Below, piece by piece: positions 4,592-24,767 of a stretch of 64,000 nucleotides of DNA. Each line of letters opens with the position of its first letter. The stretch's first letter is position 1. Under the pieces are notes generated by a model. It made no database searches and had not been told where the DNA came from. It saw only the letters and a list, made by a program, of their open reading frames with translations. The stretch spans positions 1-64,000 of the forward strand of contig JBMORA010000028.1 in NCBI GenBank assembly GCA_049320885.1. The letters run 5' to 3'. The stretch comes from Thermodesulfobacteriota bacterium (GTDB lineage Bacteria > Desulfobacterota > Desulfobacteria > Desulfobacterales > SURF-7). A program made the translations under genes and the position numbers.

Positions 4592-4672
4592 TTATGCCTT
4601 TAAAAAAAACAGTTGATTGCACCTACGTTTGTATGTTATTGCGTACAAAATTAATACCAAAAGAGGTACAAA

Positions 4673-5462: not shown

Positions 5463-5476
5463 ATCCAGGCTGCCGA

Positions 5477-7764: not shown

Positions 7765-8655
7765 TCAGGACTTGAATATGGAGGTTCTATTGAGTTCCGG
7801 AAGCAACGCCAACATCACCGCATTCCAGCCCTTGCTTCCATGATAAGGCGCCTTGATGAGCCGCGACAAATTAAAGGCCTCATACGTTCCATCCGGGTGG
7901 GGAATCAGTACCGGAATGTCGACGCTGCGCAGCAAGGGCAGGTCGTTGGGGCTGTCACCCAAACCGATGGTCAGGATTTTTTCGGAAAAATGTCTTTGAA
8001 AAATGGTTGCCGTAAGTTTCACCGCCACCCCCTTGTCGTTGTGCTCGTCGATAAGATGATGGAAACGGCCACCACGAATGACACGCAATCCGGCCGCCCG
8101 TGCAGAAGTAAACAAGTCGTGCTTGCGGGTCGTATCATTCAGCAGCAAAGGCTCGCTGAACTCTCTTTGTTTGGCCAATACGGCTTGGTCGACAGAAAGT
8201 CCCGTCTCTTCGGCGATTTCTTCCGCCTCCATATCGTTGAATCCTTGCAATGATGAATGTTGCCGCACATGTTCGACAACGATGCGGGCCAAAGGATAAG
8301 GTGCCCCCAGCATGATCCGGCGGTACCCATTCCGCGCCTTAGATTCCGGAATATCAAAACCTCGGTACTCTTCCGGAAAGAAAACCCCGCCGCCGTTTTC
8401 CACGATAAAGGGCTCGTCTAATTCCAGGATGCCGCGCAGTTCTTCGACTTCGCTGCGGGTTTTGCTGGTACAAAAAATCAAGGGGATGTTGCTGCGCTTT
8501 ATCAGTTCCAGGGCTGGGAGCGCATCGACAAAAGAATAATCGGCATGATTCAGTAAGGTTCCATCAAGATCAGTGAAAATTACAAGCAATCCCGGTTTTT
8601 TCACCCGAATTTTACGGAGGTCTTCCCACACAGTGTTTCCAATAATGTCCTTCAT
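7765..8655 (-). CDS. mpgP: HAD-IIB mannosyl/glucosyl-3-phosphoglycerate phosphatase family
   Basis: FTDLDGTLL, CTSKT.E, FIVENGGG, REFSEP, GGRFHH, GLGDSPND motifs. Confidence 0.85.
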   Translation of the reverse strand: MKDIIGNTVWEDLRKIRVKKPGLLVIFTDLDGTLLNHADYSFVDALPALELIKRSNIPLIFCTSKTRSEVEELRGILELDEPFIVENGGGVFFPEEYRGFDIPESKARNGYRRIMLGAPYPLARIVVEHVRQHSSLQGFNDMEAEEIAEETGLSVDQAVLAKQREFSEPLLLNDTTRKHDLFTSARAAGLRVIRGGRFHHLIDEHNDKGVAVKLTATIFQRHFSEKILTIGLGDSPNDLPLLRSVDIPVLIPHPDGTYEAFNLSRLIKAPYHGSKGWNAVMLALLPELNRTSIFKS

Positions 8656-9082
8656 CCTCTTTCCTCTAATCTCGGAGGACACATACCTGATTCAACATCA
8701 GTGATTCTTGACAGCAGTATGTAGAAAACGGTTCCCTGTTTCTACTTGTTTTTAAGGCCTCCCTATTTTTAAGATTTTGAGATATAACACTTTTCCCACT
8801 AATTTTCCACCTATAATCCAAGAATGGAGCAAGGTCTTCCATCCCATAGCCGAATCGTTTATATGGGTGAGTATCAAAATACATCCTTTTCTGTATTTCA
8901 TCCCATATACGATATTCCTATTGTAGATATCATCTAAAGAGGTTTTTGGAAAAAATGAGCGGAAAATTTGCCGCAAACAACTGAACTGTTGCGAGCCGCT
9001 GTCAGTTTTTCGATAGAGCGCGGCAGCGTCGTGGCAAAAACCATTGCCTCTGATATCAAATCAAACAGAGAGGAGCAAACAA

Positions 9083-9859
9083 ATGCTCGGACCAGAGACC
9101 CGACAACAATTACAGCAAATCCTGGTGAACCTCAGGCAACAAATTCTGGCCAACCGCCGCTACCTGGATTCCGCGTGGTTGAAATTGAATGAGCCGGAAA
9201 AAGAACTGGAAGAATACGCCAGAAAGCTCACCATGGCTCAAAAAATCGTGATGCTGGAGGGCATCGATCAAAAGCGTTTTCATCTGATAGAAGCCGCGCT
9301 CGAAAAAATGGACGCTGGGGAATATGGCCGCTGTGAAGATTGCGGTCAGCCCATTGCCGTAAAACGCCTGCAAGCGCTTCCCTGGGCTCTTTGCTGTGTC
9401 GAATGTGCCTCAGAACAGGAGAAAACCCTGCGATCTCCGGCAACGCAGTCTTCGTCTGCGCCACCGCCGGAATCCATGGGTGACCGGGAAATTTTGGTGG
9501 CCGTTCGGAAAGAAATAGCTGAGACTGAGGACATGGGGGATATCTCCGTGACCTGCAACAATGGGGTGGTGTACCTTGTAGGTTTATTGCCCAATGAGCA
9601 CAGCCGGCGGAACCTCAAGGAAACCATAGAGGATGTCCTTGGTGTGGAAGAAATTGTGGACCATACCAGCATCGAACAACAAAACTGGCCCCCCATGGAA
9701 CCGGGGGCCGAGGATTCCGTGGAGCCGCCGCTGGACAAGAAAACTCCGGAAGAAATTTTGATGAACGGGGAAGATGTCGACGACGATATTCTCGCCGCCT
9801 TACAGGAGGGAACACCCATCATTCCGCCGTCGAAATTCATTCCCGAAAAAAAACCATAG
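9083..9859 (+). CDS. TraR/DksA C4 zinc finger protein fused to a BON-like domain and acidic tail
   Basis: YGRCEDCGQPI..RL.ALP....CVEC; then ISV..NNGVVYL.G...V.GVEEIVD; RBS GAGGAG. Confidence 0.8.
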   Translation: MLGPETRQQLQQILVNLRQQILANRRYLDSAWLKLNEPEKELEEYARKLTMAQKIVMLEGIDQKRFHLIEAALEKMDAGEYGRCEDCGQPIAVKRLQALPWALCCVECASEQEKTLRSPATQSSSAPPPESMGDREILVAVRKEIAETEDMGDISVTCNNGVVYLVGLLPNEHSRRNLKETIEDVLGVEEIVDHTSIEQQNWPPMEPGAEDSVEPPLDKKTPEEILMNGEDVDDDILAALQEGTPIIPPSKFIPEKKP

Positions 9860-9946: not shown

Positions 9947-11401
9947 CTATGCCCGGGTTCCTCCCTTGGAATGGAGATCGGAAAGAAACCGAATTTTCCC
10001 TTGTAAAATACTGCCCCCCGGGACGATTGCCTGGGAGGAACGCAGATTTTCAATGCGGACATGTCCCTTGATGATCACTCCAGGCTCGAACTTCACATCC
10101 CCCGCGATTTCCAGCGAATCGCAGAATTGCAATGACGGAATGGCCGGAAGGCGTTTGAAAAAGCCATCCATGGTCTTGAAGTATAGCGGGTCGAGTTTTA
10201 CAAACGGCAGCCGCCTCCGGCGGTTGGGTTGGGTAACCACCCGGCCGTCTTCGCCCAACCGCATCAGGTCCGAACGGACGATGAGCAGGTCGCTGCTTTT
10301 TTTCACCGGCAGGAACCGGCGTCTGGGAACCAGCACGGCCGTGGCTTTTGGAAACAGACCGATGGCATGTCCCATGGCCGTTTCGATCTGGTAAACAGCC
10401 GGCGAACGTGCATCGGTGGGATCCAGGGTTTTTGGATTGGCGAAAAACGGCAGGCGGAATCCTTGACCGGCAGACATTATTTCTTTCACATGTCCCAAAT
10501 GCAGCCAAATGTTGTTGGTGTTGAACAGCCGATGGCGCCGGATATCGCTGAAAGCATTCAGATCCTGCCGGGGACATTGCGCCAACTCCCGCAATACCAG
10601 GGTGCCATCGGCGCGGCAGGCCAAATGGCCGCCCTTCTGGTCATTCCGGATTCTCTCAGCCACTTCCATCATGAAGGCCAGGTCGTGGGCGGCGAAATAC
10701 CCCAACAGGGAAGGCTCCACCACGGCGCCGAGATTGTCCGCATTGGAAACAAAGGCGTATTTTATACCCTTATTCAACAATTCCTGCAAAATGCCCGAAA
10801 AATACAACGCGGCAAACAGATCCCCATGTCCGGCCGGGCTCCATTCCAACCGGGGATCGATGGGCCACTGGGCCGGTGCGAAATCATCCTGAAGCACTTT
10901 CGGGAATTGGTGCTGGAGAAAAAATAGCGGCATGCTGCGCGGCTGGATTCGATGGATGGCCGCTCTTGTTTCCGCGTGGGTATGAAAGCTGTTCATCAAC
11001 ACCAATTGAACATTTTGAACATCCGCCTGGTACAGGATGGTTTCCAGAAAACTTTTGCCGTTAAGGGCTTTCAGCAGAGATTTCGTGCGTCTAAGCCCAA
11101 GACTGGTTCCCAAACCTCCGTTCAGCTTGATCATGGCGGTTTGATTCAACAGTTTACCACCAATTCTTGAATAGCCTTCCAGGTGGGCCGCATGTGGAAG
11201 CGCCTCCGGTGCCAGGGGCCGGATGGCAACCTCGTGGATCAAGCCCGTGTTTCCCGCCGCCAGGCGCCCATAATAATAGGCAAAGGTTTCTTGAACGGCC
11301 TCAGGCAGTCCAACACGGTTCATTTTTTCCATGAACTGCGGGAGGTGGGCCGGCAAACTTGAATTTTCAGGCTGTTGCAGACCTTTCGCTCGTTGGGTCA
11401 T
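9947..11401 (-). CDS. UTP--glucose-1-phosphate uridylyltransferase, eukaryote-like UDPGP family
   Basis: KLNGGLGTS.G, MNSF.T, W.P.GHGD, FVSNADNLGA, KGGHL, FNTNN.W, ETAMG, RFLPVK. Confidence 0.9.
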   Translation of the reverse strand: MTQRAKGLQQPENSSLPAHLPQFMEKMNRVGLPEAVQETFAYYYGRLAAGNTGLIHEVAIRPLAPEALPHAAHLEGYSRIGGKLLNQTAMIKLNGGLGTSLGLRRTKSLLKALNGKSFLETILYQADVQNVQLVLMNSFHTHAETRAAIHRIQPRSMPLFFLQHQFPKVLQDDFAPAQWPIDPRLEWSPAGHGDLFAALYFSGILQELLNKGIKYAFVSNADNLGAVVEPSLLGYFAAHDLAFMMEVAERIRNDQKGGHLACRADGTLVLRELAQCPRQDLNAFSDIRRHRLFNTNNIWLHLGHVKEIMSAGQGFRLPFFANPKTLDPTDARSPAVYQIETAMGHAIGLFPKATAVLVPRRRFLPVKKSSDLLIVRSDLMRLGEDGRVVTQPNRRRRLPFVKLDPLYFKTMDGFFKRLPAIPSLQFCDSLEIAGDVKFEPGVIIKGHVRIENLRSSQAIVPGGSILQGKIRFLSDLHSKGGTRA

Positions 11402-11924
11402 GGGGTTTACCTCCTATTCATGTTAATTGGGAAATCGCCTCTTCTCGTGGAGCCTTCAGGAAACTGGTCATCCGGCAGCGGTTTACCCGCATCAAAGCAA
11501 TTCCTGATGGGTGAGTTCAACTATTTGATTTCTGCCGGCCAGAGGATGGTTGGCATCCAGGGTCACAGTCGTGCCGATTCACCCGATTTTCGTTTTGTAT
11601 CTTGTTCAGAGATCAACATTGATAACAATGGGGCCAATTCTGTAGATCCGGAGACATTCTTCTGTATTCAATAATCAATCGGCAGCAAGTCGACCGCCGA
11701 CCCAGGAAATCCCCATCGTCAATTCCAAGATTTTAAAAAAGATTGCAGATCTAATTTGTTATCGATATAAGTGATCTGTCTTTTCCTTCCGTTAAAGGTG
11801 CCGGTGTTTTTACGGCAAACGATGGGACAATGTTGAAGTCAGAATTTTTCTGCGCCAGTTGCAGGGTTGTCGCCCGTTGCACTTTTTGTTTTTTAACAAA
11901 AACCACCAAGTGTAGACAATTGCG

Positions 11925-13106
11925 ATGAAAAATCTCAACGGGAATTGCTATACACTGACTTTGTTCGTGGCCGGAACTGGAAAATCATCAACCATAGCAA
12001 GACGGAATTTGGAATGTATTTTCCGTGAGGAACTAAAAATCGACTACGCTCTCCGGATTGTCGATGTGCTGGAAACCCCCCAGGCTGCTGTGGCAAACGG
12101 AGTTGTTCTAGCGCCGTCACTACTACTGGTGGAGGCAAATAGCCGGCCCGTGCTGATTGTCGGTGACCTGAGCGACACTGCTCGAATAAATACCGCATTG
12201 GGGCTTTCGTCGCCCATTCAAACAAACCCCGGTGCATCCCGACAGGACGAGGTTACCCTTGCATTGCAACATGGCCAAGTGGATGCGGTTGTCGGACTCA
12301 ACGGCATTTACCTGGTACAATCCAGTGAGTTGGAAGAAAAACGGCGGCACAGCGAAACTGAGCTTCGCAATATCGTAGATAATCAACACGAAATCATTCG
12401 GGACAACAATCGCCTGCTGCAGGCCCTGAGCACAAAATTGAGTGAGCTTTCCTATCAGACTCTGCAATGCATTGAAAACGAGAGAAAAATAATCGCCAGA
12501 GAACTGCACGACAGCATCGGCGCCAGCCTGACAGCCATCAAATTTGGTCTGGAAAGCCGGCTGCTCAAAATGGATCAGCCGCCGGAGCCGGATGTCATCT
12601 CCTTTGAACAACTCATCGACTACCTAAAGGACGCCAGCCGGGAAACCAAACGGATTTCAGACGGCTTGCGGCCCAGCTGGCTGGATGAGAGAAATCTGTT
12701 GGAGGCCGTGCAGCAGCATATTGAGCAATTTCGGGAATATCATGCCCATATCGAGGTGCAAACCCAAATCGACGTGGAGGCTACATCCCTTACACCCCGT
12801 TTCAAAATCGTCCTGTTCCGCGTGCTCCAGGAGGCCTTGAACAACATCGTCAAACACAGCCAGGCGGACCGCGTGGAAATCTTCCTGAGACGAAATGGCA
12901 ACTGTATAGAATTACAGGTCAAAGATAATGGTTGCGGCTTTGAAGCCGAAAAGGGGTCAGAAAAACAGGGCCGGCCGGCTGGTTTCGGCCTGATAAGCAT
13001 GCGCGGCCGGGTGGAGCTTTGTAGCGGCTGTTTCGAAATCTGTTCCAAACCCGGTCAAGGCACAACTATCAGCGTTGCGTTACCATTGGAACAGATCAAC
13101 GGATAA
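11925..13106 (+). CDS. KaiB-like domain fused to HisKA_3 histidine kinase
   Basis: N-terminal YTLTLFVAG...S..A..NL...YALRIVDVLETPQ.A....V..P.L (KaiB-like); ARELHDSIG H-box, QEALNNIVKH, DNGCGF, GFGL. Confidence 0.85.
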   Translation: MKNLNGNCYTLTLFVAGTGKSSTIARRNLECIFREELKIDYALRIVDVLETPQAAVANGVVLAPSLLLVEANSRPVLIVGDLSDTARINTALGLSSPIQTNPGASRQDEVTLALQHGQVDAVVGLNGIYLVQSSELEEKRRHSETELRNIVDNQHEIIRDNNRLLQALSTKLSELSYQTLQCIENERKIIARELHDSIGASLTAIKFGLESRLLKMDQPPEPDVISFEQLIDYLKDASRETKRISDGLRPSWLDERNLLEAVQQHIEQFREYHAHIEVQTQIDVEATSLTPRFKIVLFRVLQEALNNIVKHSQADRVEIFLRRNGNCIELQVKDNGCGFEAEKGSEKQGRPAGFGLISMRGRVELCSGCFEICSKPGQGTTISVALPLEQING

Positions 13107-13281
13107 TCAGCAACGGTTGAAAAAATATGTAATTATTTTTTCTATTATTCTAAACTATTATTCCATATGCTGGCCATCCCATTTCAAGGGCAACCACCGA
13201 TTTTTCCCACCATGGGTTGCATTTTGGCGCTTCGCCTGCTACCGTTATCCGTAACAGGAGAATGACCAAGGAGAACCGCTA

Positions 13282-14184
13282 ATGATCATCACCATTGGAG
13301 AAGTGGTGACGGATCATTTCCCGAAGTATCGACGCATCGGTGGGGCGCCGCTCAATTTTGCCTGTCATCTACAAAAATTCAGGGAGAATGTGGTCCTGAT
13401 CACCCGTTTGGGTAACGATGCCGACGGAGATGAAATCCGAAGCTTGATCCGCGACCACGGCTTGCCATCTGCCTTTATCCAGCGCGACCGGCACCACTCC
13501 ACCGGTCGGGTGCATGTGACCCTGGATGCCCAGGGGGGGCCGAATTTCGATATCGTCATCGGCACTGCTTATGACCATATCGAGCTGGATCCCTCTGTTT
13601 TCAGCCGCCTGGCGGGGGAACAGACGCTTATCTACTATGGATCGCTGATTCAGCGCAGCACCAATGGTTTTACACAGCTCCGACGCTTTTTGGAAAGCCG
13701 GCCGAAAAGCGCAAAATGCTTCTGCGACATCAATCTGCGCCCCCCCCATTTCCGCCACGAAGTCATCGAGCAATGTCTGCACTACGCCGACATTCTCAAG
13801 CTCAATGAAGAGGAACTTATGACCATAGCGGCAATGCTGACAGTTTCCGGAACAGCACCGGACATGGTCGCGGCGTTGATGGATCGGTACCGTCTCGAGA
13901 TGGTCGCCGTCACCCTGGGAGCGGGCGGCAGTTTCGTCGTACACGCAAACCAGCGCTATGACGCTCCCCGACCGAAGACAGAAGACCTGGTGGATACCGT
14001 GGGTGCAGGGGATGCTTTCGCCGCTGTACTCGCCTTGGGATACCTGCGACAGCTACCCCTGAACCTTGTCCTGAAGGTGGCGACGGGTTTCGCCGCCGAA
14101 GTTTGCCGACGCCCGGGAGCGATACCCGCGGATGATGCCCCTTATGAGCGAGTCGAACGCCAACTAAAGGACTCTCAGAGATGA
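13282..14184 (+). CDS. PfkB-family fructokinase
   Basis: GGAPLNFA, DINLRP, LKLNEEE, VDTVGAGDAF; first gene of the sps-sus operon. Confidence 0.85.
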   Translation: MIITIGEVVTDHFPKYRRIGGAPLNFACHLQKFRENVVLITRLGNDADGDEIRSLIRDHGLPSAFIQRDRHHSTGRVHVTLDAQGGPNFDIVIGTAYDHIELDPSVFSRLAGEQTLIYYGSLIQRSTNGFTQLRRFLESRPKSAKCFCDINLRPPHFRHEVIEQCLHYADILKLNEEELMTIAAMLTVSGTAPDMVAALMDRYRLEMVAVTLGAGGSFVVHANQRYDAPRPKTEDLVDTVGAGDAFAAVLALGYLRQLPLNLVLKVATGFAAEVCRRPGAIPADDAPYERVERQLKDSQR

Positions 14185-16427
14185 CCGACAGCTTACCCTA
14201 CATCCAGATGTTCAGCCTGCATGGACTGATCCGCAGCAGGAACATGGAGCTTGGCAGAGACGCTGATACCGGCGGACAGGTGAAATACGTCATTGAACTC
14301 TGCCAGCACCTGAGTCGACAGCCGGAGATCGGACGGGTCGATCTGTTTACCCGCCTGGTGGCCGACAAACGCGTCTCGGAAGACTATGCCCAACCCGTCG
14401 AGGTGGTGAACCCCAAATTCCGCATTATCCGGATTCAGTGCGGCGGCCGGAAATATATCCGCAAAGAGCTGCTGTGGCCCCACCTCGACGAATATGTGGA
14501 CAAATGCGTCAAATTCATGAAGCGCGAGAAGCAGGCCCCCGATGTGCTACACGGCCATTACGCCGATGCCGGATATGTGGCCTTGCAGCTGGCCGACTTT
14601 TTCGGCGCGCCGTTCATTTTCACCGGCCACAGCCTGGGCCGTTCCAAGCTGCAAAAACTGCTGGACGACGGAATGACCCGGGAGGACATCGTCAAAAAAT
14701 ACAAGATCGACCATCGCATCCAGGTGGAGGAGACCATTCTGGCCCATGGGGATCTCTTGATCACCAGCACCCGCCAGGAGATGGAGGTGCAATACGGCCA
14801 ATACGACTACCACGACCTGCCCACCTATGCCATCATTCCGCCGGGGATCGACATCGACAAGTTTTATCCGTTCTACCACCACCTTCTTTCGGAAAACGGG
14901 GTTTCGGAAAACGCCATGTTCGCCCAGGCCTCCATGCTGAAGGAACTCAACCGCTTTTTCCTAAAACCGGACAAGCCGCTTATCCTGGCCCTATGCCGAC
15001 CCGACAAACGCAAAAACATTTCGGGACTGATCCAGGCCTATGGGAAAGATCTGGAACTGCAGGCCATGGCCAACCTGGCGGTTTTCGCCGGTATCCGTAA
15101 GGATATCGACACCATGGAGGAAAACGAACGGGACGTGCTCACCGGCATGCTCCTGTTGATGGACAAATACGACCTGTACGGCAAAATGGCCATCCCGAAA
15201 AAACATGATGTCGAATATGAGGTCCCCGCCCTTTACCGCATCGCCGCGGAGAGCCGGGGGGTATTTGTCAATCCGGCCCTTACCGAACCCTTCGGCATCA
15301 CCCTGCTGGAGGCCTCGGCCACCGGTCTGCCCATTGTCGCCACCAATGATGGCGGTCCCAAGGACATTCTGCGGAATTGCAGCAACGGCATCCTGGTGGA
15401 TCCCAACAGTTCACGGGCCATTTCCACAGCCTTGAAAAAAATCGTCGCGGACCCGGAGCGCTGGGAAAAGTATTCCAAAAACGGCATCCTAAACGTCCGG
15501 AAGCACTACACATGGAAGAGTCACGCGGAGGCCTACACGGAAAAACTCCGGGACCTCGTCCGCAAGCATAAGCCGTACCACCTGGATGCCGTGGTGCCCA
15601 CCGATGCCATCGGACGCCGCTTAATGGAACTGGACTACTTCCTGATCACCGATATCGACAACACCTTGATCGGTAAAGACAACACCCGCTTGGCCGAACT
15701 CTTGGAGCTGCTGGAAGCCCACCGCCATTCTATCGGCTTCGGGGTCGCCACCGGCCGTACCGTCGAATCCGCCTGGGAGATCCTGTCCAGACACGGCGTG
15801 CCGGCTCCGGACATCATCATCGGTTCCGTTGGAGCGGAAATCTACTATGGTCCCCAGCGGCAATTCGGCCAAGGCTGGGGCACCCATATCAGCCACAAAT
15901 GGGAGCGGGAGAAAATCGTCGAACTGCTTTCGGACTTTTCCTTTTTGTCTTTTCAGGAAGCCGATGCCCAGCGGCCGTTCAAAATCAGCTACTATATCGA
16001 ACCCGGTAAAGACCGGCTGGCGCAGATCCACCATCGCCTAAACGTGCACAAATGTCGCTATAACCTGATCTATTCCCACGAACGCTATTTGGATATTCTT
16101 CCGTATCGCGCCTCCAAGGGCAAGGCCATCCGATACCTGAGTTACAAATGGGAGATCCCGCTGCAGAACTTTCTTGTCTGCGGCGATTCAGGCAACGATG
16201 AAGAAATGCTGCGGGGCGAACCGCTCGCCGTGATCGTCGGTGATTACAGTCCCGAGCTGGAAATGCTCAAAGGCGCCCCCAGTGTCTTTTTCGCCGAAGC
16301 GCCATGTGCCGGCGGCATCCTGCAGGGATTGAAACGCTATCATTTCCTTGAAAAGGCGAGTGAAACGTGTGAAGCACATGGTAACCAGCAGACGGGAATC
16401 CGCGAAAAAAAGGAGGAAGTGGCGTGA
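14181..16427 (+). CDS. sps: Sucrose-phosphate synthase with C-terminal sucrose-phosphatase HAD domain
   Basis: ELGRDADTGGQVKYV, HGHYADAG, FTGHSLG, EPFGITLLEA; HAD motifs DIDNT, ATGR, GDSGND intact. Confidence 0.92.
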   Translation: MTDSLPYIQMFSLHGLIRSRNMELGRDADTGGQVKYVIELCQHLSRQPEIGRVDLFTRLVADKRVSEDYAQPVEVVNPKFRIIRIQCGGRKYIRKELLWPHLDEYVDKCVKFMKREKQAPDVLHGHYADAGYVALQLADFFGAPFIFTGHSLGRSKLQKLLDDGMTREDIVKKYKIDHRIQVEETILAHGDLLITSTRQEMEVQYGQYDYHDLPTYAIIPPGIDIDKFYPFYHHLLSENGVSENAMFAQASMLKELNRFFLKPDKPLILALCRPDKRKNISGLIQAYGKDLELQAMANLAVFAGIRKDIDTMEENERDVLTGMLLLMDKYDLYGKMAIPKKHDVEYEVPALYRIAAESRGVFVNPALTEPFGITLLEASATGLPIVATNDGGPKDILRNCSNGILVDPNSSRAISTALKKIVADPERWEKYSKNGILNVRKHYTWKSHAEAYTEKLRDLVRKHKPYHLDAVVPTDAIGRRLMELDYFLITDIDNTLIGKDNTRLAELLELLEAHRHSIGFGVATGRTVESAWEILSRHGVPAPDIIIGSVGAEIYYGPQRQFGQGWGTHISHKWEREKIVELLSDFSFLSFQEADAQRPFKISYYIEPGKDRLAQIHHRLNVHKCRYNLIYSHERYLDILPYRASKGKAIRYLSYKWEIPLQNFLVCGDSGNDEEMLRGEPLAVIVGDYSPELEMLKGAPSVFFAEAPCAGGILQGLKRYHFLEKASETCEAHGNQQTGIREKKEEVA

Positions 16428-18817
16428 GTAAACAGCTGGAGGCACTACTTCTGGAGAACCAAAAAGATGTATTTCGTTTTTTAAGCAAGGTGGCCGCCCA
16501 TGAAAAAAAACTGTTCGTCAAAGGCGATCTGCTGGAAATCCTGGAGTGCTACAAGGCCGAAAGCGGCGAGGAACATCATGCCGCCATCAGCGACCTTGCG
16601 CGGAAGATCAACGAAGGAGTCGCCATCGGCAGCTGCATTTATTTCGAGTTTCGCGAAAAGATTGGTTTTTCAGAATGTTATATCTTTAACCTGGAAGAGC
16701 TCGCCTTCAACCAGATCAGTGCGGCGCAATACCTGAAGGCCAAGGAGACCTTCATCAAACCGGAACAGACGGAAGACCTGTTGACCCTGAATTTCAGAAC
16801 GTTTTACGACAAGTTCCCCAGCGTCCGGGAATCCAAGAATATCGGGCATGGCGTCGAATACCTCAACCGGTATCTGTCTAGCAACATGTTCACCAATCCG
16901 GCCAAACTGAGTGCCGCCCTTTTCGATTTCTTGTTTCTTCACAAAATCGGCACGCGCCAGCTGGTGCTCAACGACAGGGTCAACAGCCCCGAAAAACTCT
17001 CGGCGAGCATCGAGAAGGCCAAGAAGTTCTTGCAGAAACAGGCGGACAACGAGCCGTATGAAAACATCAAACAGGTCCTGCAGGAGTTTGGATTAGAACC
17101 CGGCCTGGGAAATACTGCTGCCAAGATCATGGAAAGCCTGGAATTGCTCGATACCATCATGTTGTCCCCCGACCCCCAATCCCTTAAAGCCTTTCTGTCC
17201 CGGATTCCCATGATTTTTAACATCGCCGTCATTTCCCCCCACGGCTATTTCGGCCAAGAAGGGGTGCTGGGTATGCCCGATACCGGCGGTCAGGTCGTGT
17301 ATATCCTGGATCAGGTCAAGGCCCTGGAGCAGGCCATGGCCGAATCGTTTTTGGAGTCTGGCGTCACCGCGCGGCCAAAAATCATCATCCTGACCCGTTT
17401 GATCCCCAATGCCGGGAATACCTGCTGTAATCAGCGGTTGGAGAAAGTGCATGAAACCCGGAACACCTGGATCCTGCGGGTGCCCTTTCGCCAGCACAAC
17501 AAGCGCGTCACCGACAACTGGATCTCCCGATTCGAAATATGGCCCTATCTGGAGGAATTCGCCCTGGATGCCTGCCGGGAACTGTTGACCGAATTCGGCC
17601 AAAGGCCGGATCTCCTCATCGGCAATTACTCGGACGGCAATCTGGTGGCCTCCATCCTTTCCCGGAAACTGGGCGTCACCCAATGCAATATCGCCCACGC
17701 CCTCGAAAAGAGCAAGTACCTGTTCAGCGCCTTGTACTGGGAAAGCATGGAGGAACAATATCATTTTTCCAGCCAGTTTACCGTGGATCTTCTGGCCATG
17801 AACAGCGCCAACTTCATCATCACCTCCTCGTATCAGGAAATCGCGGGAACCGAAGAAAGCATCGGGCAGTATGAGTCTTATCTCAATTTCACCCTGCCGG
17901 GTCTGTATCGCGTCACCGGCGGGATCAATCTGTTCCATCCCAAGTTCAACATCCTGCCGCCGGGCGTGAACACGAAAGTCTATTTCCCTTATACCCGCAA
18001 GAAAGAAAGAAGAGAGAAAACCTGCCGCGAACTGACCCGACTGTTGTTCGAGAATGCTGAGGATCCGGAAGTCTTCGGCCGCCTGACGGAGCCGGATAAA
18101 GTCCCGATTTTTTCCCTGGCGCGGTTGGATAAAATAAAAAACCTGTCCGCCTTGGTTCAATGGTTCGGAAAAAGCAAGGAACTTCAGGAACAGGCGAACC
18201 TGATCATCGTGGCTGGCAAGGTCGACCCGGAGCATTCGACGGACGGCGAGGAAAAGGAGCAGATCCATCTGCTCCATGCGCTCATCGGCACCTATGACCT
18301 GCAGGATAAAATCAGGTGGATCGGCAAGCTGTTCCGCAAGGAGCAGACCGGCGAAGTGTACCGCCTCATCGCCGACCGGAAAGGGGTGTTCGTCCAGCCG
18401 GCCCTGTTCGAAGGCTTCGGTCTGACCGTGCTGGAAGCCATGCGTTCTGGGCTCCCGGTCTTCGCCACCCAATATGGCGGCCCCTTGGAGATCATCCAGG
18501 ACGGTCGCTCCGGATTTCACATCGACCCCATCAACGAAGTCGAAACCATCGACAAATTATCAGGATTCCTTCAAAAATGCGCCATCGATGCCGGCCATTG
18601 GACGAGAATATCTAAAAATGCAATCGAACGGGTGGATACAACCTATAATTGGGGACTCTATTCCAGGAACCTGCTGTCCCTGGCGAAAATCTACGGTTTC
18701 TGGCGCTTTTCCACCAATATCGAAATGGAGGAAATGAATGCCTATCTCGATGTGCTATACCATTTGCTGTACCTGCCCATGGCCAGAAAAATCATGGATA
18801 TGCATATGCAGCGATAA
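16424..18817 (+). CDS. sus: Sucrose synthase
   Basis: SPHGYFGQ..VLG.PDTGGQVVYILDQV, WISRFEIWPYLE, IGNYSDGNLVA, AHALEK, VQPALFEGFGLT. Confidence 0.95.
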   Translation: MSKQLEALLLENQKDVFRFLSKVAAHEKKLFVKGDLLEILECYKAESGEEHHAAISDLARKINEGVAIGSCIYFEFREKIGFSECYIFNLEELAFNQISAAQYLKAKETFIKPEQTEDLLTLNFRTFYDKFPSVRESKNIGHGVEYLNRYLSSNMFTNPAKLSAALFDFLFLHKIGTRQLVLNDRVNSPEKLSASIEKAKKFLQKQADNEPYENIKQVLQEFGLEPGLGNTAAKIMESLELLDTIMLSPDPQSLKAFLSRIPMIFNIAVISPHGYFGQEGVLGMPDTGGQVVYILDQVKALEQAMAESFLESGVTARPKIIILTRLIPNAGNTCCNQRLEKVHETRNTWILRVPFRQHNKRVTDNWISRFEIWPYLEEFALDACRELLTEFGQRPDLLIGNYSDGNLVASILSRKLGVTQCNIAHALEKSKYLFSALYWESMEEQYHFSSQFTVDLLAMNSANFIITSSYQEIAGTEESIGQYESYLNFTLPGLYRVTGGINLFHPKFNILPPGVNTKVYFPYTRKKERREKTCRELTRLLFENAEDPEVFGRLTEPDKVPIFSLARLDKIKNLSALVQWFGKSKELQEQANLIIVAGKVDPEHSTDGEEKEQIHLLHALIGTYDLQDKIRWIGKLFRKEQTGEVYRLIADRKGVFVQPALFEGFGLTVLEAMRSGLPVFATQYGGPLEIIQDGRSGFHIDPINEVETIDKLSGFLQKCAIDAGHWTRISKNAIERVDTTYNWGLYSRNLLSLAKIYGFWRFSTNIEMEEMNAYLDVLYHLLYLPMARKIMDMHMQR

Positions 18818-18931
18818 CGGAGAGCGTGGCGCAACCGTTGAGTGGGAGGTGCAAAGATGTTTGACGGAAGAAACCTATATCATACTGCACGGACCGGATA
18901 ATGATTCGGCGAGTCATTTAATCTTCTGGCT

Positions 18932-19609
18932 TCAGGACTCGGTGGAGATGCTTACGAGGCGCTTCTCGATGGCATAAGCCGTGAGTCCGGAGGCGTTGTG
19001 GATATCCAACTTACTCATTATATTGGAGCGATGCTTGCTCACCGTTTTTTCGCTGATGCATAAGAAATCCGCGATCTCCATATTTTTATAACCCTCGCCG
19101 ATGAGCTTCAGGACTTCTTTTTCCCGCTGGGTCAGAGTGTCCCAGGAGGTTTTCTTTTTAAGGCGTTTCTTGCCTTCAAGATATCCTTCCAGAACCTTGT
19201 CTGAAATCGCCGGGCTCAAATAGGTTTTTCCGTCCATTACTGTGGTCATGGCCTTGAGCAGATCCTCATAAGAATCGTCTTTCAGGCAGTAACCATTGGC
19301 GCCGGCTTGAAAAGCGTCTATAATGAACTCGTCGTCGGCATGGATGGTAAGGACCAGGATTTTGATGGCCTGTGTTTTTCTCCGGATTTCGTTGATAGCC
19401 GGAATACCGTTCATTTTGGGCATGGATAAATCCAGCAAAATCAGATCCGGTTGATGTTTATCCGTTACGCGTATGACCTCCAAGCCATCTTCCGCCTCCC
19501 CCACTACGCTAAATTCACCCGAGGCTTCCAACAAGGCGCGCAAACCCTGTCGCACAATGGTACTGTCTTCGCCAATTACAACTCGGGTGCTTTTTCGAAA
19601 TTGGTTCAT
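18932..19609 (-). CDS. NarL/LuxR family response regulator
   Basis: Receiver LLDLSMP plus HTH LTQREKEVLKLI...ISEKTV..HRSNIM.KL. Confidence 0.93.
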   Translation of the reverse strand: MNQFRKSTRVVIGEDSTIVRQGLRALLEASGEFSVVGEAEDGLEVIRVTDKHQPDLILLDLSMPKMNGIPAINEIRRKTQAIKILVLTIHADDEFIIDAFQAGANGYCLKDDSYEDLLKAMTTVMDGKTYLSPAISDKVLEGYLEGKKRLKKKTSWDTLTQREKEVLKLIGEGYKNMEIADFLCISEKTVSKHRSNIMSKLDIHNASGLTAYAIEKRLVSISTES

Positions 19610-20745
19610 CTCGTTTCTCCTTTCTGTTCATTTGATTGCATTTGGCGCAGATCATCCGATAGCATTTTCAAGATATGGGCGTTCGGCCAGGAAGCCTTAA
19701 TCGAGGTGCCTTGGGCGTTTTGGGAAGAAATATGGAAGCTGCCGCCGATAAATTCCGCTCTTTCTTTCATGCTTTCCAGTCCCATGCCTGGATTCGTTAC
19801 GTTTGTCCCAAGGGTCTCGCCGACATCAAAACCGATGCCGTTATCGAAAATCTCGAAATCAATCCGTTCATTCTGTTTCTGCAAGCGTATGGCGATATGA
19901 TCGGCACGGCTGTGCTTCACAATATTGGCAAGGGCCTCCTGAAGGATTCTGAAAATAACGATCTTCAACGGTTTGGGCACATCCGTTTCCGCAATTCCGA
20001 TCTGCACATTGATCTCAACACATGGGGTCACCAAATTAAATTTACGGCAGTACCAATGGATGGTCCTGATAATACCCAAGTCGTCCAACAGTGTGGGGCG
20101 GATATTGGAATAGATATTCCGCAGGTCATGCAGCGCCTTCTTGACCAGGGGCAGCATTTCCTGTGCGGATTGGGATTGCCTTCCCGATTCAAGCGGGAGA
20201 CGGATGACATTTTCCAACCCGAGTTTGATGGCAGTGAGACTGCTGCCGATATTATCATGGAGTTCCCGGGATAGTTTTTTGCGTTCCTCCTCCTGGGTGT
20301 GGATCAATTTTGCGGAGATAACCCGCAGGCGCTGTTCGGTCTTTCTCAGGGTTACCATATTCCGCATTTTTTCGATGGCGTAGTGAATGCAATGCACGAG
20401 CAATACCGGTGTCAGGTGTTCTTTTTCGATCCAATCCATGATTCCCGGCGGAAAGCGACTGGACAATACTTTGCTGTCTTGTTCTTCCACTATCACAACA
20501 ACTGGGCAGGCCAGCGCTTCCTTACTCAAGACTTCCAGTAAATCCGTTAGGCTTTGCATCGATAGAACTGCATCGATAAAACAAACATCCATCATTCTCT
20601 GCTTCAGCAGCAGCGAAGCTTCTTTAATGGTTCGCGTCCATTCCAGTTGCACCTGAAAGGCCTCGACTTGCCGGGTCATCTCTTTTAAAAGAGTATAGCT
20701 TTCTGCGTGATGGGCAACCAGCAAAATTTTCAAGTCTTGCCTCAT
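19606..20745 (-). CDS. Receiver-like domain plus HisKA_3 histidine kinase
   Basis: SRELHDNIG, QEALANIVKH, DNGIGF, GMGL; likely start MRQDLKILLV; overlaps the regulator start. Confidence 0.85.
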   Translation of the reverse strand: MRQDLKILLVAHHAESYTLLKEMTRQVEAFQVQLEWTRTIKEASLLLKQRMMDVCFIDAVLSMQSLTDLLEVLSKEALACPVVVIVEEQDSKVLSSRFPPGIMDWIEKEHLTPVLLVHCIHYAIEKMRNMVTLRKTEQRLRVISAKLIHTQEEERKKLSRELHDNIGSSLTAIKLGLENVIRLPLESGRQSQSAQEMLPLVKKALHDLRNIYSNIRPTLLDDLGIIRTIHWYCRKFNLVTPCVEINVQIGIAETDVPKPLKIVIFRILQEALANIVKHSRADHIAIRLQKQNERIDFEIFDNGIGFDVGETLGTNVTNPGMGLESMKERAEFIGGSFHISSQNAQGTSIKASWPNAHILKMLSDDLRQMQSNEQKGETR

Positions 20746-21277
20746 CGTGCGATCTTTGCGTCTGGTCTTCATGATTTGGGATATACAATCAAAAAATGCA
20801 TAGAACAATAAAACAAATTTATACCATTCAGTCAAATTTTCATCAAAATTTTTTATCTGTCTCACCCTTAAATGCGTCTGTGAGAACTGCGCTTTCCCAA
20901 TTGACCACCGGCAATTTGGGACCTCCTCCTTGCCCCACAATAACGGATTCAGTTTAATATAGAAGAAGATTTCAGCCACAATGCCAATCTCAAGCCGGTA
21001 AAGATGGCCGTTGCAGTACATATTGTATACTGGACCGGCTGAATTGAAATACTGGTTTGGCAGTATTTTTATTTTGCGCCTTGTGAAGTAATAGACGTAT
21101 CGATATCAAAAAAATATTTCAAGACCTCAAGGAGGGATTATGCGTGCTAAGCGGAATGAAAACAGGTTGGCAGATATCCCGCAGCCAGATTTGACGCAAC
21201 CCAAGTTGATATCAGCAGGTGTTGGAAGTAATTCGAGCCCCGCTAATTTGAATTCAAGCCAACAGGAGAGCAGCATC

Positions 21278-21538
21278 ATGGAAAATCGTCAATTCGTAAG
21301 ACAAATTATCGAATTAAATCGTGAATCAGTGGATACTATTTTCGACACATTGACTTGGCTGCACATGCAAACAGAAAAGATGACCGACCGCATGATCAAC
21401 AATGGTATTTGGCTGCCGGAGGAGGGACGAAACCTCATATCGGAATGGAACGCGGCCTGCAGGAAAGGGCAAGAAAATTTGAAAAAATCCATCAATGCTT
21501 ATTTTGAGCAAACAGCCGTCATTTTGAAAGTGGATTGA
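21278..21538 (+). CDS. Small helical hypothetical protein (phasin-like, deltaproteobacterial)
   Basis: RBS AGGAG; QTEKM...WLPEEG...EW..A..KG motif. Confidence 0.6.
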   Translation: MENRQFVRQIIELNRESVDTIFDTLTWLHMQTEKMTDRMINNGIWLPEEGRNLISEWNAACRKGQENLKKSINAYFEQTAVILKVD

Positions 21539-21689
21539 TTTCAGAATCGACCTCATCGATCCACTCCGGATCAATCATCTGACAACGTACCGATGTCTTT
21601 GAAGCCCGGCTGTCATTTCCAAATTCTTTTCATGCACAGGTCGGCACCAACGCATTGGGAATTTGCTGCCCTAAAGGATAGCCGCAAAG

Positions 21690-22748
21690 ATGATACTGGA
21701 AACCATTTATTATCATAATACCGTCCGCAGTTGGCTCGCAGCCGTCACCATTTATATTGTCGTTTTTCTGTTCCTGGTTATTGCCAAAAAATTGGCCTAT
21801 CGGAAATTGACTGTCTGGACTTCCCAAACCGTTTCAGAATGGGACGATCTGATCCCCCATCTGATCCAGCGCCTGAAACTAGCTGTCATTTTCGCCCTCA
21901 GCCTTTATGCTGGTACCGCGGTATTGACACTATCCGAAGGTTTGCACCTGCTCATCCACAAACTCTGTCTGGTTGTGCTGCTGCTCCAATCGGCCATATG
22001 GGTATCCTATAGCATGAGTTTTTGGCTGGCCCTGTACCGGAAACAGCAAATGGTTATCAATGCGGGTGCGGTCACCACGGTCAGCGCCATGGCCTTCATA
22101 TTGCAGGTATTGCTGTGGACAATCATTCTATTGTTAATCCTCTCCAATCTCGGCGTGAACATTACGGCCCTGATCACCGGCCTTGGCGTGAGCGGTATCG
22201 CCATGGCCCTGGCGGTTCAGAATGTGCTCGGTGATTTATTCTCATCCTTCTCCATCGTTCTGGACAAACCTTTTGTCATTGGCGATTTCATCATTGTGGA
22301 CGACTATCTTGGTACGGTTGAAAAGGTTGGCATTAAAACCACGCGCATCCGGAGCCTTTCCGGGGAGCAGCTGATTTTTTCCAACACTGACCTCTTGAAT
22401 AGCAGGATCCGAAATTTTAAGCGCATGGTGGAACGGCGAGTGGCTTTTCACCTGGGGCTCGTCTATCAGACAAGCCTTGCACAGCTTGAGGCCGTCCCAC
22501 GGATCTTGCGAGAAGTCGTCGAAGCGCAATCAGGTGTCCGTTTTGACCGGGCCCATTTTAAAGAATACGGTGAATACGCCTTGAATTTTGAAATCGTCTA
22601 CTGGGTCGAAAACCCGGATTACAATTTCTACATGGATGTTCAACAGGCTGTCAACCTGACGATCTACAAACGCTTCCAGATTGAAAACATCCGATTTGCC
22701 TACCCAACCCAGGCTCTTCTCCATTTGCATCCGGAGACAGGGGTCTGA
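21690..22748 (+). CDS. mscS: Small-conductance mechanosensitive channel
   Basis: GLGVSGIA.ALA.Q, DKPFVIGD, GIKTTRIRSLSGEQ, FDRAHF, FAYPT. Confidence 0.92.
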   Translation: MILETIYYHNTVRSWLAAVTIYIVVFLFLVIAKKLAYRKLTVWTSQTVSEWDDLIPHLIQRLKLAVIFALSLYAGTAVLTLSEGLHLLIHKLCLVVLLLQSAIWVSYSMSFWLALYRKQQMVINAGAVTTVSAMAFILQVLLWTIILLLILSNLGVNITALITGLGVSGIAMALAVQNVLGDLFSSFSIVLDKPFVIGDFIIVDDYLGTVEKVGIKTTRIRSLSGEQLIFSNTDLLNSRIRNFKRMVERRVAFHLGLVYQTSLAQLEAVPRILREVVEAQSGVRFDRAHFKEYGEYALNFEIVYWVENPDYNFYMDVQQAVNLTIYKRFQIENIRFAYPTQALLHLHPETGV

Positions 22749-22839: not shown

Positions 22840-24132
22840 TCAGGAGGATGTACGCCCCTCGGCCTTTTTCTGGGGGTTGGCAGGCTTCAGATACGCCCCC
22901 CAATAACTCATGCCCACGAACACCGCCCCGCCGATGATGTTGCCGATGGTCACCGGCAGGAGGTTTTTCCACAGACAGTTGACCCAGGTCAGGCCCTCGG
23001 CGTTGATGGCCTGAATGGCGGCCAGTTCCCCCCAGCTCTTGATGAAGATGCCGGTGGGAATGAAATACATGTTGGCCACGCAGTGTTCGAAGCCGATGGC
23101 GACGAACCCCATGATGGGAAAGAAAATGGCGAAAATTTTACCGACGGTCTGCCGGGCCGCCAGGGCCATCCATACCGCCAGGCAGACCAGCCAGTTGCAG
23201 CCGATGCCCCGGAAAAGGGCTTCGCTGAATCCCAGGGTTGATTTTTTCAGGGCGATGGTGACCGCGGCGGCCCCCAAGGCGCCGTCTCCGGTTTTCCACA
23301 GGCCGGAAAAATAAAACAGCAGGGCGATAACCAGCGACCCCACGAAATTGGCCAGATACACCACGGACCAGCGTTTGAGCATGTTGCCGATGGTGATTTC
23401 CCGGCTCAAGACACTGGAGACCATGAGATTGTTGCCGGTGAAGAGTTCGGCCCCGGCAATGACCACCAGCATCAGTCCGAGACTGAAAGCGGCGCCGGCC
23501 ATGACCTTGGACAAGCCGACGCCGGTGATGGGCGCCATGTCGAAGGTGACGCTGGTGGACAGCAGGCCGCCGAAGCCGATATAAGAGCCGGCCAGGACCC
23601 CCAATACCGTAACCGTCAGCCAGGGGGAAGTCACCTTGCCCACGCCGATGGTGGACGCCACCGTTTCCGCGATGGTCTTGGGTGCCTTGTCTTCCATGCC
23701 CGGAACCGGAAACTGCAGGGATTTGATGATGTTTTCAAAGCGGCCCAGAACCTGTTTTTCCGCCGTCAATTTGCGCTGGATCGCCCTTGTGACCGTGGCG
23801 TATATTTCTTCCGGAGTGAACGGCTTGGCCACATAATCCATGGCGCCCCGCTTCATGGCCTCGGTGGCCCGCCCCACGGAAGGAAAACCGCTGATCATCA
23901 CCATGGCGGATTCCGGCGATCTTCGATGGAGTTCCTCGATCACGTCGAGACCGTCGAAACCGGGCATTTTCCAGTCGCACAGAATCACATCGAAGGCGGA
24001 ATCCCCGGCGAGCCGGAGCCCTTCCTGGGGACTCGATGTGATCACCACGTTGAAACCTTCCGCGCTGAAGATCCTCCGACAGGAATTCAAGACGATTTCA
24101 TCGTCATCAATGATCAGCATGGTCTGGGTCAT
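22840..24132 (-). CDS. Receiver domain fused to formate/nitrite transporter (FNT) channel
   Basis: REC (IIDDD, LCDWKMP, SG, KPF) in frame with FNT motifs GAELFTGN, GIGCNWLVCLA, GFEHCVANM. Confidence 0.92.
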   Translation of the reverse strand: MTQTMLIIDDDEIVLNSCRRIFSAEGFNVVITSSPQEGLRLAGDSAFDVILCDWKMPGFDGLDVIEELHRRSPESAMVMISGFPSVGRATEAMKRGAMDYVAKPFTPEEIYATVTRAIQRKLTAEKQVLGRFENIIKSLQFPVPGMEDKAPKTIAETVASTIGVGKVTSPWLTVTVLGVLAGSYIGFGGLLSTSVTFDMAPITGVGLSKVMAGAAFSLGLMLVVIAGAELFTGNNLMVSSVLSREITIGNMLKRWSVVYLANFVGSLVIALLFYFSGLWKTGDGALGAAAVTIALKKSTLGFSEALFRGIGCNWLVCLAVWMALAARQTVGKIFAIFFPIMGFVAIGFEHCVANMYFIPTGIFIKSWGELAAIQAINAEGLTWVNCLWKNLLPVTIGNIIGGAVFVGMSYWGAYLKPANPQKKAEGRTSS

Positions 24133-24140: not shown

Positions 24141-24767
24141 CTACTGTTTCATGTGCTTCTTCCCTTCCGTCAGCCAGTGCTTCTGTTCCGGCTTGATCAT
24201 GCCCAGCTGATCCTCCAGCCAGTCGACATCCCCGGTGACGATCGCCAGCTTTTCATTGGCGGTCAATTTGTACGGGCCCAGGGCCTCGCCCCCCTCTTCA
24301 AAGACCTTCCGGGCAAAATCCGGCTCCGCAGCTCCTTTCATCAGCACCTTCCGGACTTCCTCGGCATGAATCAGGGTCTGCTCTTCCGGAACGCTGCCGG
24401 TGGCGGCTTCGATGGCCGATACCACAATCCGGATCAGTTCTTCCGGATCGAACGGTTTTTCAATGTAGTTGACGGCCCCCAGTTTCATGGCCTGGACCGC
24501 CGAAGCCACGCTGGCATAACCCGTTATGATCACCACGGGCATCTGCGGCTTCTGACGTTTGACATCCCGGACAACCGTCAACCCATCCACGTCCGGCATC
24601 CGGATATCAGTGAGAACGATATCGTAGGATTCCTCGGCAGCCATGCGAATCCCGGCCCTGGCGCTCAGGCTGACATCCACCTCGAATCCTTCCTCCGTCA
24701 GCACCCTGCGGATACTCTCCAGGACGATCGCCTCGTCATCAATGGCCAACACTTTTTTCCCCTTCAT
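24141..24767 (-). CDS. Response regulator with small helical C-terminal domain
   Basis: REC LTDIRMP/KPF; C-terminal DFARKVFEEGGEAL..YKLT..EKLAIVTGD. Confidence 0.88.
   Translation of the reverse strand: MKGKKVLAIDDEAIVLESIRRVLTEEGFEVDVSLSARAGIRMAAEESYDIVLTDIRMPDVDGLTVVRDVKRQKPQMPVVIITGYASVASAVQAMKLGAVNYIEKPFDPEELIRIVVSAIEAATGSVPEEQTLIHAEEVRKVLMKGAAEPDFARKVFEEGGEALGPYKLTANEKLAIVTGDVDWLEDQLGMIKPEQKHWLTEGKKHMKQ

Follow-up and report, generated by a model that had tools for sequence, protein, structure and literature searches.

The first 64,000 nucleotides of contig JBMORA010000028.1 from a Thermodesulfobacteriota bacterium (GenBank assembly GCA_049320885.1), hereafter the window, contain a gene for a soluble histidine kinase in which a KaiB-family domain precedes a HisKA_3 phospho-acceptor domain and a HATPase_c catalytic domain. 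This gene, the KaiB kinase, is located directly upstream of a sucrose operon, beyond which lie the genes of a NarL-type response regulator and of a second HisKA_3 kinase. A preliminary description of the DNA had read the KaiB kinase as an independently evolved analogue of cyanobacterial SasA, which could place sucrose metabolism under KaiC-type control through a branched circuit of two kinases and one regulator. Here, we find that the domain combination is real and unusual, and that control by a clock is not supported; the gene is of interest as a case of domain shuffling and does not represent a clock output that controls sucrose. With slightly less than even confidence, we tentatively describe the protein as an orphan soluble kinase whose KaiB domain provides a KaiC-independent input, and which converges with the second kinase, a pseudo-receiver kinase, on the local NarL regulator, with the surrounding osmoadaptation cluster as the likely target.

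The KaiB kinase matches the Pfam models of KaiB (PF07689, 40.5 bits against a cut-off of 27, residues 13-92), HisKA_3 (PF07730, 43.8 bits, residues 186-251) and HATPase_c (PF02518, 59.8 bits, residues 297-389). Its translation contains the string ALQHGQVDAVV, and the arrangement given in the preliminary description, a KaiB-like N-terminus joined by this string to a HisKA_3 kinase directly 5' of the sucrose operon, is confirmed (Table 1). The H-box reads RELHDSIGASLTAIKFGLE, the HATPase_c motifs EALNNIVKHS, DNGCGF and GFGL are present in the alignment, and the reading frame is intact. Having an H-box histidine in its dimerisation and histidine phosphotransfer (DHp) domain and a HATPase_c domain with N, G1 and G2 motifs, the protein belongs to the HisKA_3 class; its phospho-acceptor domain is of the HisKA_3 type only and does not qualify as HisKA (PF00512). 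Model NF006800 ('histidine kinase', PRK09303) gave 21.8 bits, where the cut-off is 342. In a six-frame search of the genome with PF07689, the KaiB domain scored 43.7 bits and was the sole KaiB match. It falls below the cut-offs of the circadian equivalogs (41 versus 110 bits for NF006798, and 39.3 versus 145.3 bits for TIGR02654), and it keeps all 11 columns that are invariant in an alignment of the query with nine KaiB sequences (A5, 10 rows). Judged by these scores, the domain is a genuine but diverged member of the family and not an equivalog of the clock KaiB.

Structural models were made with AlphaFold2 for the N-terminal 135 residues (70-row alignment) and for the full-length protein (67 rows), with mean predicted local distance difference test (pLDDT) scores of 81.7 and 87.7, respectively. 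In both models, residues 9-91 form a β-α-β-α-β-β-α arrangement, with block pLDDT values of 89-98 over residues 11-90. Past this domain, the full-length model has a helix (residues 106-115), a β-hairpin (121-130), a long helix (133-214) that carries His195, the second DHp helix and the ATP-binding domain; the pLDDT of the linker region, residues 101-130, is 74-85. The top match in a Foldseek search was a KaiB stabilised in the fold-switched state (5jwr_B, template modelling score 0.89 by target, root mean square deviation 1.5), followed by KaiB-RS bound to KaiC-RS and by the Legionella KaiB, while a SasA domain (6x61_J) ranked 28th. Prediction of the fold state had been proposed in the preliminary description, and both models place the domain in the thioredoxin-like, fold-switched topology. 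An alanine of the domain aligns, by eye, with Gly89 of Thermosynechococcus elongatus KaiB. The G89A substitution pushes KaiB toward the fold-switched state, and the KaiB of Legionella, which has Ala89, crystallises in that fold, as described in PMC11665890. The KaiB domain may thus be locked in the fold-switched state, with the proviso that AlphaFold2 may favour that state regardless.

Searches of the genome (G000; 68 contigs totalling 5.61 Mb, 98.24% complete, 0.89% contamination) revealed no KaiC. The KaiC model TIGR02655 had no match, and the best match to the other curated KaiC model, NF006799, was RadA with 44.5 bits against a cut-off of 408. All three matches to PF06745 are accounted for by RadA (TIGR00416, 602 bits), RecA (TIGR02012, 561 bits) and a protein of 445 residues on another contig (C9) that combines an ATPase-like segment with HTH_3 and Cupin_2 domains. 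This last protein was considered as a hidden KaiC and is deemed unlikely to be one; the match is weak and partial, covering about 85 residues of one domain, and many relatives without KaiB have comparably weak matches in open frames of about that size. The statement that no kaiC lies in the window hence extends to the whole of this nearly complete genome. The preliminary description had named the lack of kaiC in the genome, together with no effect on sucrose gene expression, as evidence against KaiC-type control, and the former is what we find. Since the genome has no KaiC, the KaiB domain would not read a Kai clock, and it is most likely a KaiC-independent input that binds proteins or dimerises.

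The distribution of KaiB and KaiC in related bacteria shows how uncommon this situation is. KaiC exceeds its cut-off in 5 of 41 genomes, comprising 40 relatives and the present genome, which is not among the five. The KaiB-like matches of the relatives come from four genomes (G023, G024, G036 and G037), and all of them adjoin KaiC. In a sample of 401 genomes of the phylum, KaiB exceeds its cut-off in 48, and 43 of these have either KaiC or, adjoining kaiB, a fragment of it: 41, counted by hand comparison, at E ≤1e-40, and two (G362 and G114) in which a fragment adjoins kaiB at a contig end. KaiB without KaiC is therefore rare. The other KaiB-positive genomes are one with kaiB at a contig edge (G342), one with a borderline KaiB match (G092), and three without any KaiC match, namely the present genome, G410 and G382. 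In these three, KaiB is either fused to a kinase, as here, or located beside one. G410 and G382, which are 100% and 97% complete, carry kaiB-kaiB-PAS-HisKA(-REC) operons (L057, contig C13, 5842-8324, and L058, contig C292, 5631-8133, respectively), and their KaiB proteins are canonical, with a glycine aligned with residue 89.

The survey for recurrence suggested in the preliminary description returned no second KaiB-HisKA_3 protein in any search. A word-indexed search with residues 1-135 retained two proteins among 1064 candidates, the query itself and a tandem-KaiB HisKA hybrid kinase (P0002). An exhaustive search of representative sequences gave 912 KaiB-domain proteins at E ≤0.001; within the best 150 of these, HisKA_3 was absent from P0002 and from the 14 non-query proteins of at least 176 residues, which bear HisKA, PAS, CheC, REC or GGDEF domains, or tandem KaiB. 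When 8000 candidates were scored with the full-length protein, 1066 matched at E ≤1e-20, and in the best 120 of them PF07689 and PF07730 occur together in the query alone. A pattern-based scan of species-representative genomes produced 32 loci, in which every match begins only from residue 134 onward. The fusion was found in none of the 40 relatives, two genomes of the same genus included, and the Protein Atlas showed no cluster with KaiB and HisKA_3 among the matches listed. No published description of a KaiB-HisKA_3 kinase was found in a literature search, which covered main texts, and a review of pseudo-receivers describes no such fusion in its accessible part (PMC12632262).

Comparison with known KaiB-containing systems shows where the KaiB kinase is likely to come from. 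SasA of Synechococcus elongatus, whose partner is RpaA, likewise has an N-terminal KaiB-like domain of thioredoxin fold directly before its histidine kinase, and in this respect the architecture is SasA-like, as had been proposed. The N-domain of SasA is constitutively in the fold-switched KaiB fold according to PMC11665890. However, the kinase described here is HisKA_3 and not HisKA, the nearby regulator is NarL-type and not OmpR-type, and KaiC was not found. Moreover, its N-terminal domain is far closer to free KaiB (E 5.5e-10 for 1r5p to 5e-06 in a search of PDB sequences) than to the N-domain of SasA (1t4y, E 0.029). The SasA homologues of non-cyanobacteria are reported to be without the KaiB-like domain (PMC5520375). 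A further parallel is seen in two KaiB-HisKA hybrid kinases from metagenomes or genomes (P0045 and P0010), each the only member of its cluster. These have the same module, a KaiB domain followed by a linker of the form A-L-x-x-G-x-(V/I)-D-(A/S)-x-x-G, aligned through residue 140, but they differ in having a HisKA core and a C-terminal receiver, with PAS domains in P0010. Used alone, the linker (residues 100-145) matches the same position directly 3' of the KaiB domain in P0045 (E 4e-05) and in P0010 (E 2e-04). P0002 resembles them in architecture class; the likeness concerns its tandem-KaiB HisKA hybrid layout and not its linker. Since KaiB and linker are found together in HisKA kinases, the KaiB-plus-linker module has been joined to more than one class of kinase. 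Judged by sequence, the fusion is independent of SasA and yet not a wholly separate invention; the proposal that it evolved independently is correct with respect to SasA and does not hold for the module, which is common to the KaiB-HisKA hybrid kinases. An origin of the linker as a leftover of the C-terminal half of a receiver was rejected: the full-length alignment with the REC-HisKA_3 kinase P0155 crossed the linker, but the linker alone matches P0155 only at E 70.

In the kinase core, identity to REC/PAS/GAF-HisKA_3 kinases amounts to 41-48% in the majority of the best 120 matches listed and to 35-40% in the others, and several of these matches come, by source name, from Desulfobacteraceae, Deltaproteobacteria or Thermodesulfobacteriota. 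The KaiB kinase shares its core family and its H-box type with these cytoplasmic kinases and differs from them in having KaiB as the input. The KaiB-plus-linker module would thus have been joined to a REC/PAS-HisKA_3 kinase core of Thermodesulfobacteriota. In the resulting protein, the diverged KaiB domain, held in the thioredoxin-like topology, may serve as the input, joined by the short helix-hairpin linker to the signalling helix. A careful tree of 43 rows was calculated from 39 of the 118 family rows, picked to span a quick tree, and four kinases of the present genome, a further kinase on contig C7 having been missed by the H-box pattern. The KaiB kinase falls inside a clade of 17 rows (support 100/98) that does not include the second kinase. 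The two proteins are 34% identical over 242 residues, and forcing them together costs 33.4 log-likelihood units (approximately unbiased test, p 0.0205; the pair was the one named in the preliminary description, and the quick tree had been viewed before the test). They are not sisters, and neither the paralogous pair suggested earlier nor a recent tandem duplication agrees with the tree. The near-identity of their H-boxes, noted earlier, stands at 16 of 19 residues, with both strings as quoted; by sequence it is a family-wide trait, since, of the 118 foreign members of the family, 88 agree with the H-box of the KaiB kinase at 16 or more of the 19 positions.

The second kinase has the REC-HisKA_3-HATPase_c layout of the same family (PF07730, 44.0 bits; PF02518, 47.5 bits) and the H-box, N, G1 and G2 motifs of the HisKA_3 class. 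Its open frame also permits starts at 20772 or 21021, and its homologues begin directly at the receiver. The receiver itself has diverged. In an alignment with the receivers of 10 REC-HisKA_3 homologues and of the local NarL regulator (A1), it has AHH in place of the acidic E-D-D and Val86 where at least 90% of the sequences have threonine, while Asp58 and Lys108 are kept. Unlike the receivers of its relatives, it has thus lost the acidic pocket and the conserved threonine. By its sequence, the domain is a pseudo-receiver as defined in PMC12632262, that is, a receiver fold without the residues needed for phosphotransfer. The HisKA_3 kinase described earlier is therefore real, but its receiver is not a canonical one. 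A word-indexed search with this domain retained only its own protein among 138 candidates, and no orthologue of the second kinase was found in the 40 relatives. The neighbouring NarL-type regulator has a canonical receiver and a GerE/LuxR helix-turn-helix, and it reached no NCBIfam equivalog cut-off. One such regulator and a second HisKA_3 kinase are located beyond the operon, at the coordinates described earlier.

There are five loci of HisKA_3-type kinases in the genome, and the three outside this locus each adjoin a NarL-type regulator. The KaiB kinase is the genome's only HisKA_3 kinase without such a neighbour. A fifth NarL-type regulator, on contig C63, was considered as its partner and set aside, as it adjoins a PAS-HisKA kinase of its own. 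Within the genome, the type of DHp helix 1 is common to the two local kinases only (16/19 residues, versus 8/19 and 6/19 for two kinases of contig C17). Because the KaiB kinase alone lacks a regulator and shares this helix type only with the neighbouring kinase, the layout of two kinases and one regulator is plausible. Both kinases probably converge on the nearby NarL regulator. Translational coupling links this regulator to the pseudo-receiver kinase, and it would be the most economical output of the KaiB kinase; two kinases with non-canonical inputs would then act on one regulator. The likely targets would be the surrounding genes of the cluster, those of UDP-glucose pyrophosphorylase, frk-sps-sus and MscS. 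Neighbours of an osmoadaptation type include, in addition to these, a BON-domain DksA-like protein and a phosphatase of the mannosyl-3-phosphoglycerate phosphatase (MPGP) family, and sucrose is a salt-regulated compatible solute in cyanobacteria (PMC6753628), which is consistent with an osmotic theme. Control of the sucrose genes by the KaiB kinase is possible; the indication is weak, being adjacency in one genome.

Several observations weigh against a local circuit of this kind. The KaiB kinase forms a cluster of one member on one contig of 129,305 bases, and as the fusion is found in one assembly only, conservation cannot back any function. Scores of 85-107 bits are typical of KaiB in the phylum sample, and among those that exceed the cut-off there, the score of its KaiB domain is one of the lowest, which could equally mean relaxed constraint. 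The sucrose operon is kept in three of the 40 relatives (G002, G031 and G020) without any flanking signalling genes, and the promoter-like block 5' of frk is kept in G002, of the same genus, without the kinases; the sucrose link made in the preliminary description is thus reduced to an adjacency seen once. The NarL gene is convergent with sus, and its upstream region faces a 132-residue open reading frame and MscS rather than the sucrose genes. Beyond trivial cases, no inverted repeat or 9-mer is common to the regions upstream of frk, the KaiB kinase and the pseudo-receiver kinase. The conservation of the operon and its promoter-like block in G002 and the convergence of NarL with sus would agree as well with an arrangement in which there is no local circuit. 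The KaiB kinase would then be an orphan that landed 5' of a pre-existing sucrose operon through a lineage-specific rearrangement, with its partner elsewhere or with none, and the pseudo-receiver kinase and NarL would be an ordinary pair that controls itself, the 132-residue frame and MscS. The two genomes of the same genus contain no orthologue of either kinase and gave no match to UDP-glucose pyrophosphorylase; the G+C contents of the KaiB kinase (0.514), NarL (0.484) and the second kinase (0.480) are 1 to 1.7 standard deviations below the genome mean (0.558, standard deviation 0.047); and 7.5 kb upstream there is a group II intron element. We regard this account as a possible one, if on the doubtful side. 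What it leaves unexplained is that the KaiB kinase has a transcription unit of one and the same pathway on either side, for the supply of UDP-glucose and for sucrose synthesis, that no other HisKA_3 kinase in this genome lacks a regulator, and that its DHp type recurs in the genome only in the kinase 6.5 kb away.

The presence of a KaiB-fold domain and a kinase pseudo-receiver in one small neighbourhood recalls a contact known from cyanobacteria. There, the pseudo-receiver of CikA binds KaiB through its α1-β2-α2 surface and inhibits CikA autophosphorylation, as described in PMC12632262. By analogy, the KaiB domain could bind the neighbouring kinase's pseudo-receiver in the way in which fold-switched KaiB binds that of CikA, and the kinases could regulate each other without KaiC; this we hold to be improbable. 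Both inputs are lineage-specific and diverged, the word-indexed searches having found a single KaiB-plus-linker relative (P0002) and none for the pseudo-receiver; furthermore, REC-KaiB fusions exist (P0068), and the two genomes with kaiB-kaiB-PAS-kinase operons show that such operons are retained where no KaiC is found. But the pairing is seen in one genome only. The two kinase genes are on opposite strands with the sucrose operon between them, and the cyanobacterial contact occurs on KaiC-bound KaiB, whereas here there is no KaiC and both domains are tethered to HisKA_3 kinases. A complex prediction for the KaiB domain (residues 1-100, alignment A2) and the pseudo-receiver (residues 1-130, A1), made without controls, scored 0.07 against a mark of 0.32, which speaks neither for nor against the contact. 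Extended to its conclusion, the analogy would have a tethered, fold-locked KaiB dock on the neighbouring pseudo-receiver as a stripped-down relative of KaiB-CikA, forming a hetero-kinase switch that sets NarL phosphorylation and, through it, sucrose synthesis and MscS, which seems to us a long shot. A true analogue of SasA, with a KaiC-type ATPase as the docking partner of the KaiB domain, is quite unlikely. Its architecture mirrors that of SasA, KaiB and KaiC nearly always occur together in the phylum sample, and a partner could lie in the unassembled 2% or so of the genome or be too diverged to recognise, as the weak P-loop match of the contig C9 protein might suggest. Yet neither curated model found a KaiC, that match has the shortcomings given above, and in the relatives kaiB always adjoins kaiC, whereas the sole KaiB domain of this genome belongs to a kinase gene that has no kaiC in its vicinity. 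Very unlikely, finally, is that the fusion is a recent by-product of evolution in which KaiB is a passenger without a role in signalling and the kinase is constitutive or heading for loss. The single occurrence and the low KaiB score would fit with this, but the intact frame, the full set of kinase motifs, the well-predicted KaiB core, its invariant columns and the conservation of the linker with other KaiB-kinase fusions would not be expected.

In the kaiC-kaiB(-kaiB)-kinase operons of non-cyanobacteria, such as those carried by Rhodopseudomonas and Rhodobacter, KaiB is likewise genetically coupled to a histidine kinase; in the present genome it is part of the kinase itself, and the searches gave no KaiC. 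Together with the KaiB-HisKA kinases, the KaiB kinase shows that KaiB-domain kinases exist beyond SasA, and for at least one of them the searched genome yielded no KaiC. If the KaiB domain does signal without KaiC, this fold-switching domain would be in wider use, and two soluble kinases with one regulator would make a compact system for study. The arrangement has little weight for the control of sucrose or for clocks, as it occurs in one assembly.

Table 1 Features of the KaiB kinase locus and of other elements mentioned in the text. Positions are those of the window unless a contig is named.
Feature	Position	Strand	Basis or remark
Group II intron D1-D4 element	4321-4487	-	RF02001, 123.2 bits; 7.5 kb upstream of the KaiB kinase
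MPGP-family phosphatase	7765-8682	-	TIGR01486, 235.3 bits (cut-off 164.75)
DksA/TraR zinc finger fused to BON domain	9044-9859	+	48.6 and 27.6 bits
UTP-glucose-1-phosphate uridylyltransferase (UDPGP; UDP-glucose supply)	9947-11401	-	PF01704, 381.5 bits; divergent from KaiB kinase
KaiB-HisKA_3-HATPase_c histidine kinase, 393 residues, soluble	11925-13106	+	Pfam domains
KaiB-family domain, residues 9-91	11949-12197	+	β-α-β-α-β-β-α models; Foldseek
Linker element, residues 106-130 (short helix and β-hairpin, with ALQHGQVDAVV)	12240-12314	+	Full-length model
Signalling helix and DHp (HisKA_3), putative phospho-acceptor His195 (codon 12507-12509)	12321-12668	+	Helices 133-214 and 227-248 in model
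Catalytic ATP-binding domain (HATPase_c), residues 277-387	12753-13085	+	PF02518, 59.8 bits
Promoter-like block 5' of frk (TTGCAT, 17 nt, TACCGT)	13217-13245	+	G000/G002 upstream alignment
frk-sps(spp)-sus sucrose operon	13282-18817	+	Overlapping stop and start codons
PfkB fructokinase (frk)	13282-14184	+	Profile scans
Sucrose-phosphate synthase (SPS) with sucrose-phosphate phosphatase (SPP)-like domain (sps/spp)	14181-16427	+	TIGR02472, 613.7 bits (cut-off 576); TIGR02471, 283.8 bits (cut-off 209.75)
Sucrose synthase (sus)	16424-18817	+	TIGR02470, 1074.8 bits (cut-off 810.4)
NarL/FixJ-type response regulator	18932-19609	-	Response_reg, 94 bits; GerE, 68.3 bits; 4-base overlap with kinase gene upstream
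Pseudo-receiver-HisKA_3-HATPase_c kinase, 379 residues from Met at 20745	19606-20745	-	PF07730, PF02518
Pseudo-receiver domain, residues 1-125	20371-20745	-	Response_reg, 24.8 bits (cut-off 30.2); alignment A1
132-residue open reading frame, divergent from pseudo-receiver kinase	21140-21538	+	Open reading frame listing
MscS-type mechanosensitive channel	21690-22748	+	PF00924, PF21082, PF21088; follows the 132-residue frame
Receiver-formate/nitrite transporter fusion	22840-24132	-	Response_reg, 91.2 bits; Form_Nir_trans, 270.4 bits; TIGR00790, 247.6 versus 232.3
ATPase-HTH-cupin protein, 445 residues	Contig C9, 104870-106207 (L002, 457-1794)	-	PF06745, 28.1 bits (residues 20-104); HTH_3; Cupin_2

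The SPS, SPP-like and sucrose synthase domains encoded by the operon each exceed the cut-off of their NCBIfam equivalog. The SPP-like domain of SPS retains a D-I-D-N-T motif of the DxDxT type and, given this motif, may be an active phosphatase. In the three relatives that keep the frk-sps-sus block, the gene order and the overlapping stops and starts are the same. The Frk, SPS and sucrose synthase proteins of G002 are 67, 84 and 78% identical to those described here, and the operon of that genome is flanked by a NiFe hydrogenase and an aldehyde dehydrogenase. UDPGP is found on other contigs in G020 and G031; compared with these three genomes, UDPGP and two-component genes surround the operon only in the present one. 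Both hexamers of the promoter-like block are identical between the present genome and G002, the spacer has four substitutions, and the sequences farther upstream are unrelated, which suggests that the block acts as a promoter of frk. A sigma-54 promoter at 13225-13240 was rejected: it has two mismatches, such matches occur 33 times in the window against 32.0 expected, and its GG and GC dinucleotides are not kept in G002. A generic scan of positions 11300-21700 was uninformative; it gave 10 promoter-like sites where 9.4 were expected, and 8 terminator-like sites where 12.4 were. No operator motif common to five intergenic regions was found, where only region-specific AT-rich palindromes are present (13119-13142, 11883-11902 and 21047-21068).

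Some neighbouring genes deserve a brief description. The group II intron element is located in a stretch of 1.7 kb (about 4353-6026) without an open reading frame of at least 100 residues, and it is apparently ORF-less or decayed. The MPGP-family phosphatase hints that another compatible-solute pathway is encoded close to the sucrose genes, and no synthase was identified adjoining it. The DksA/TraR-BON fusion is odd in that it combines an RNA-polymerase-binding motif with a domain associated with osmotic shock. Past MscS, the receiver-formate/nitrite transporter fusion is followed by two proteins of 208 residues with N-terminal receivers (24141-24767 and 24849-25475) and by an sCache-HAMP-HisKA kinase (25818-27803). 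As judged from its domains, the fusion may be a channel gated by phosphorylation, which would be unusual.

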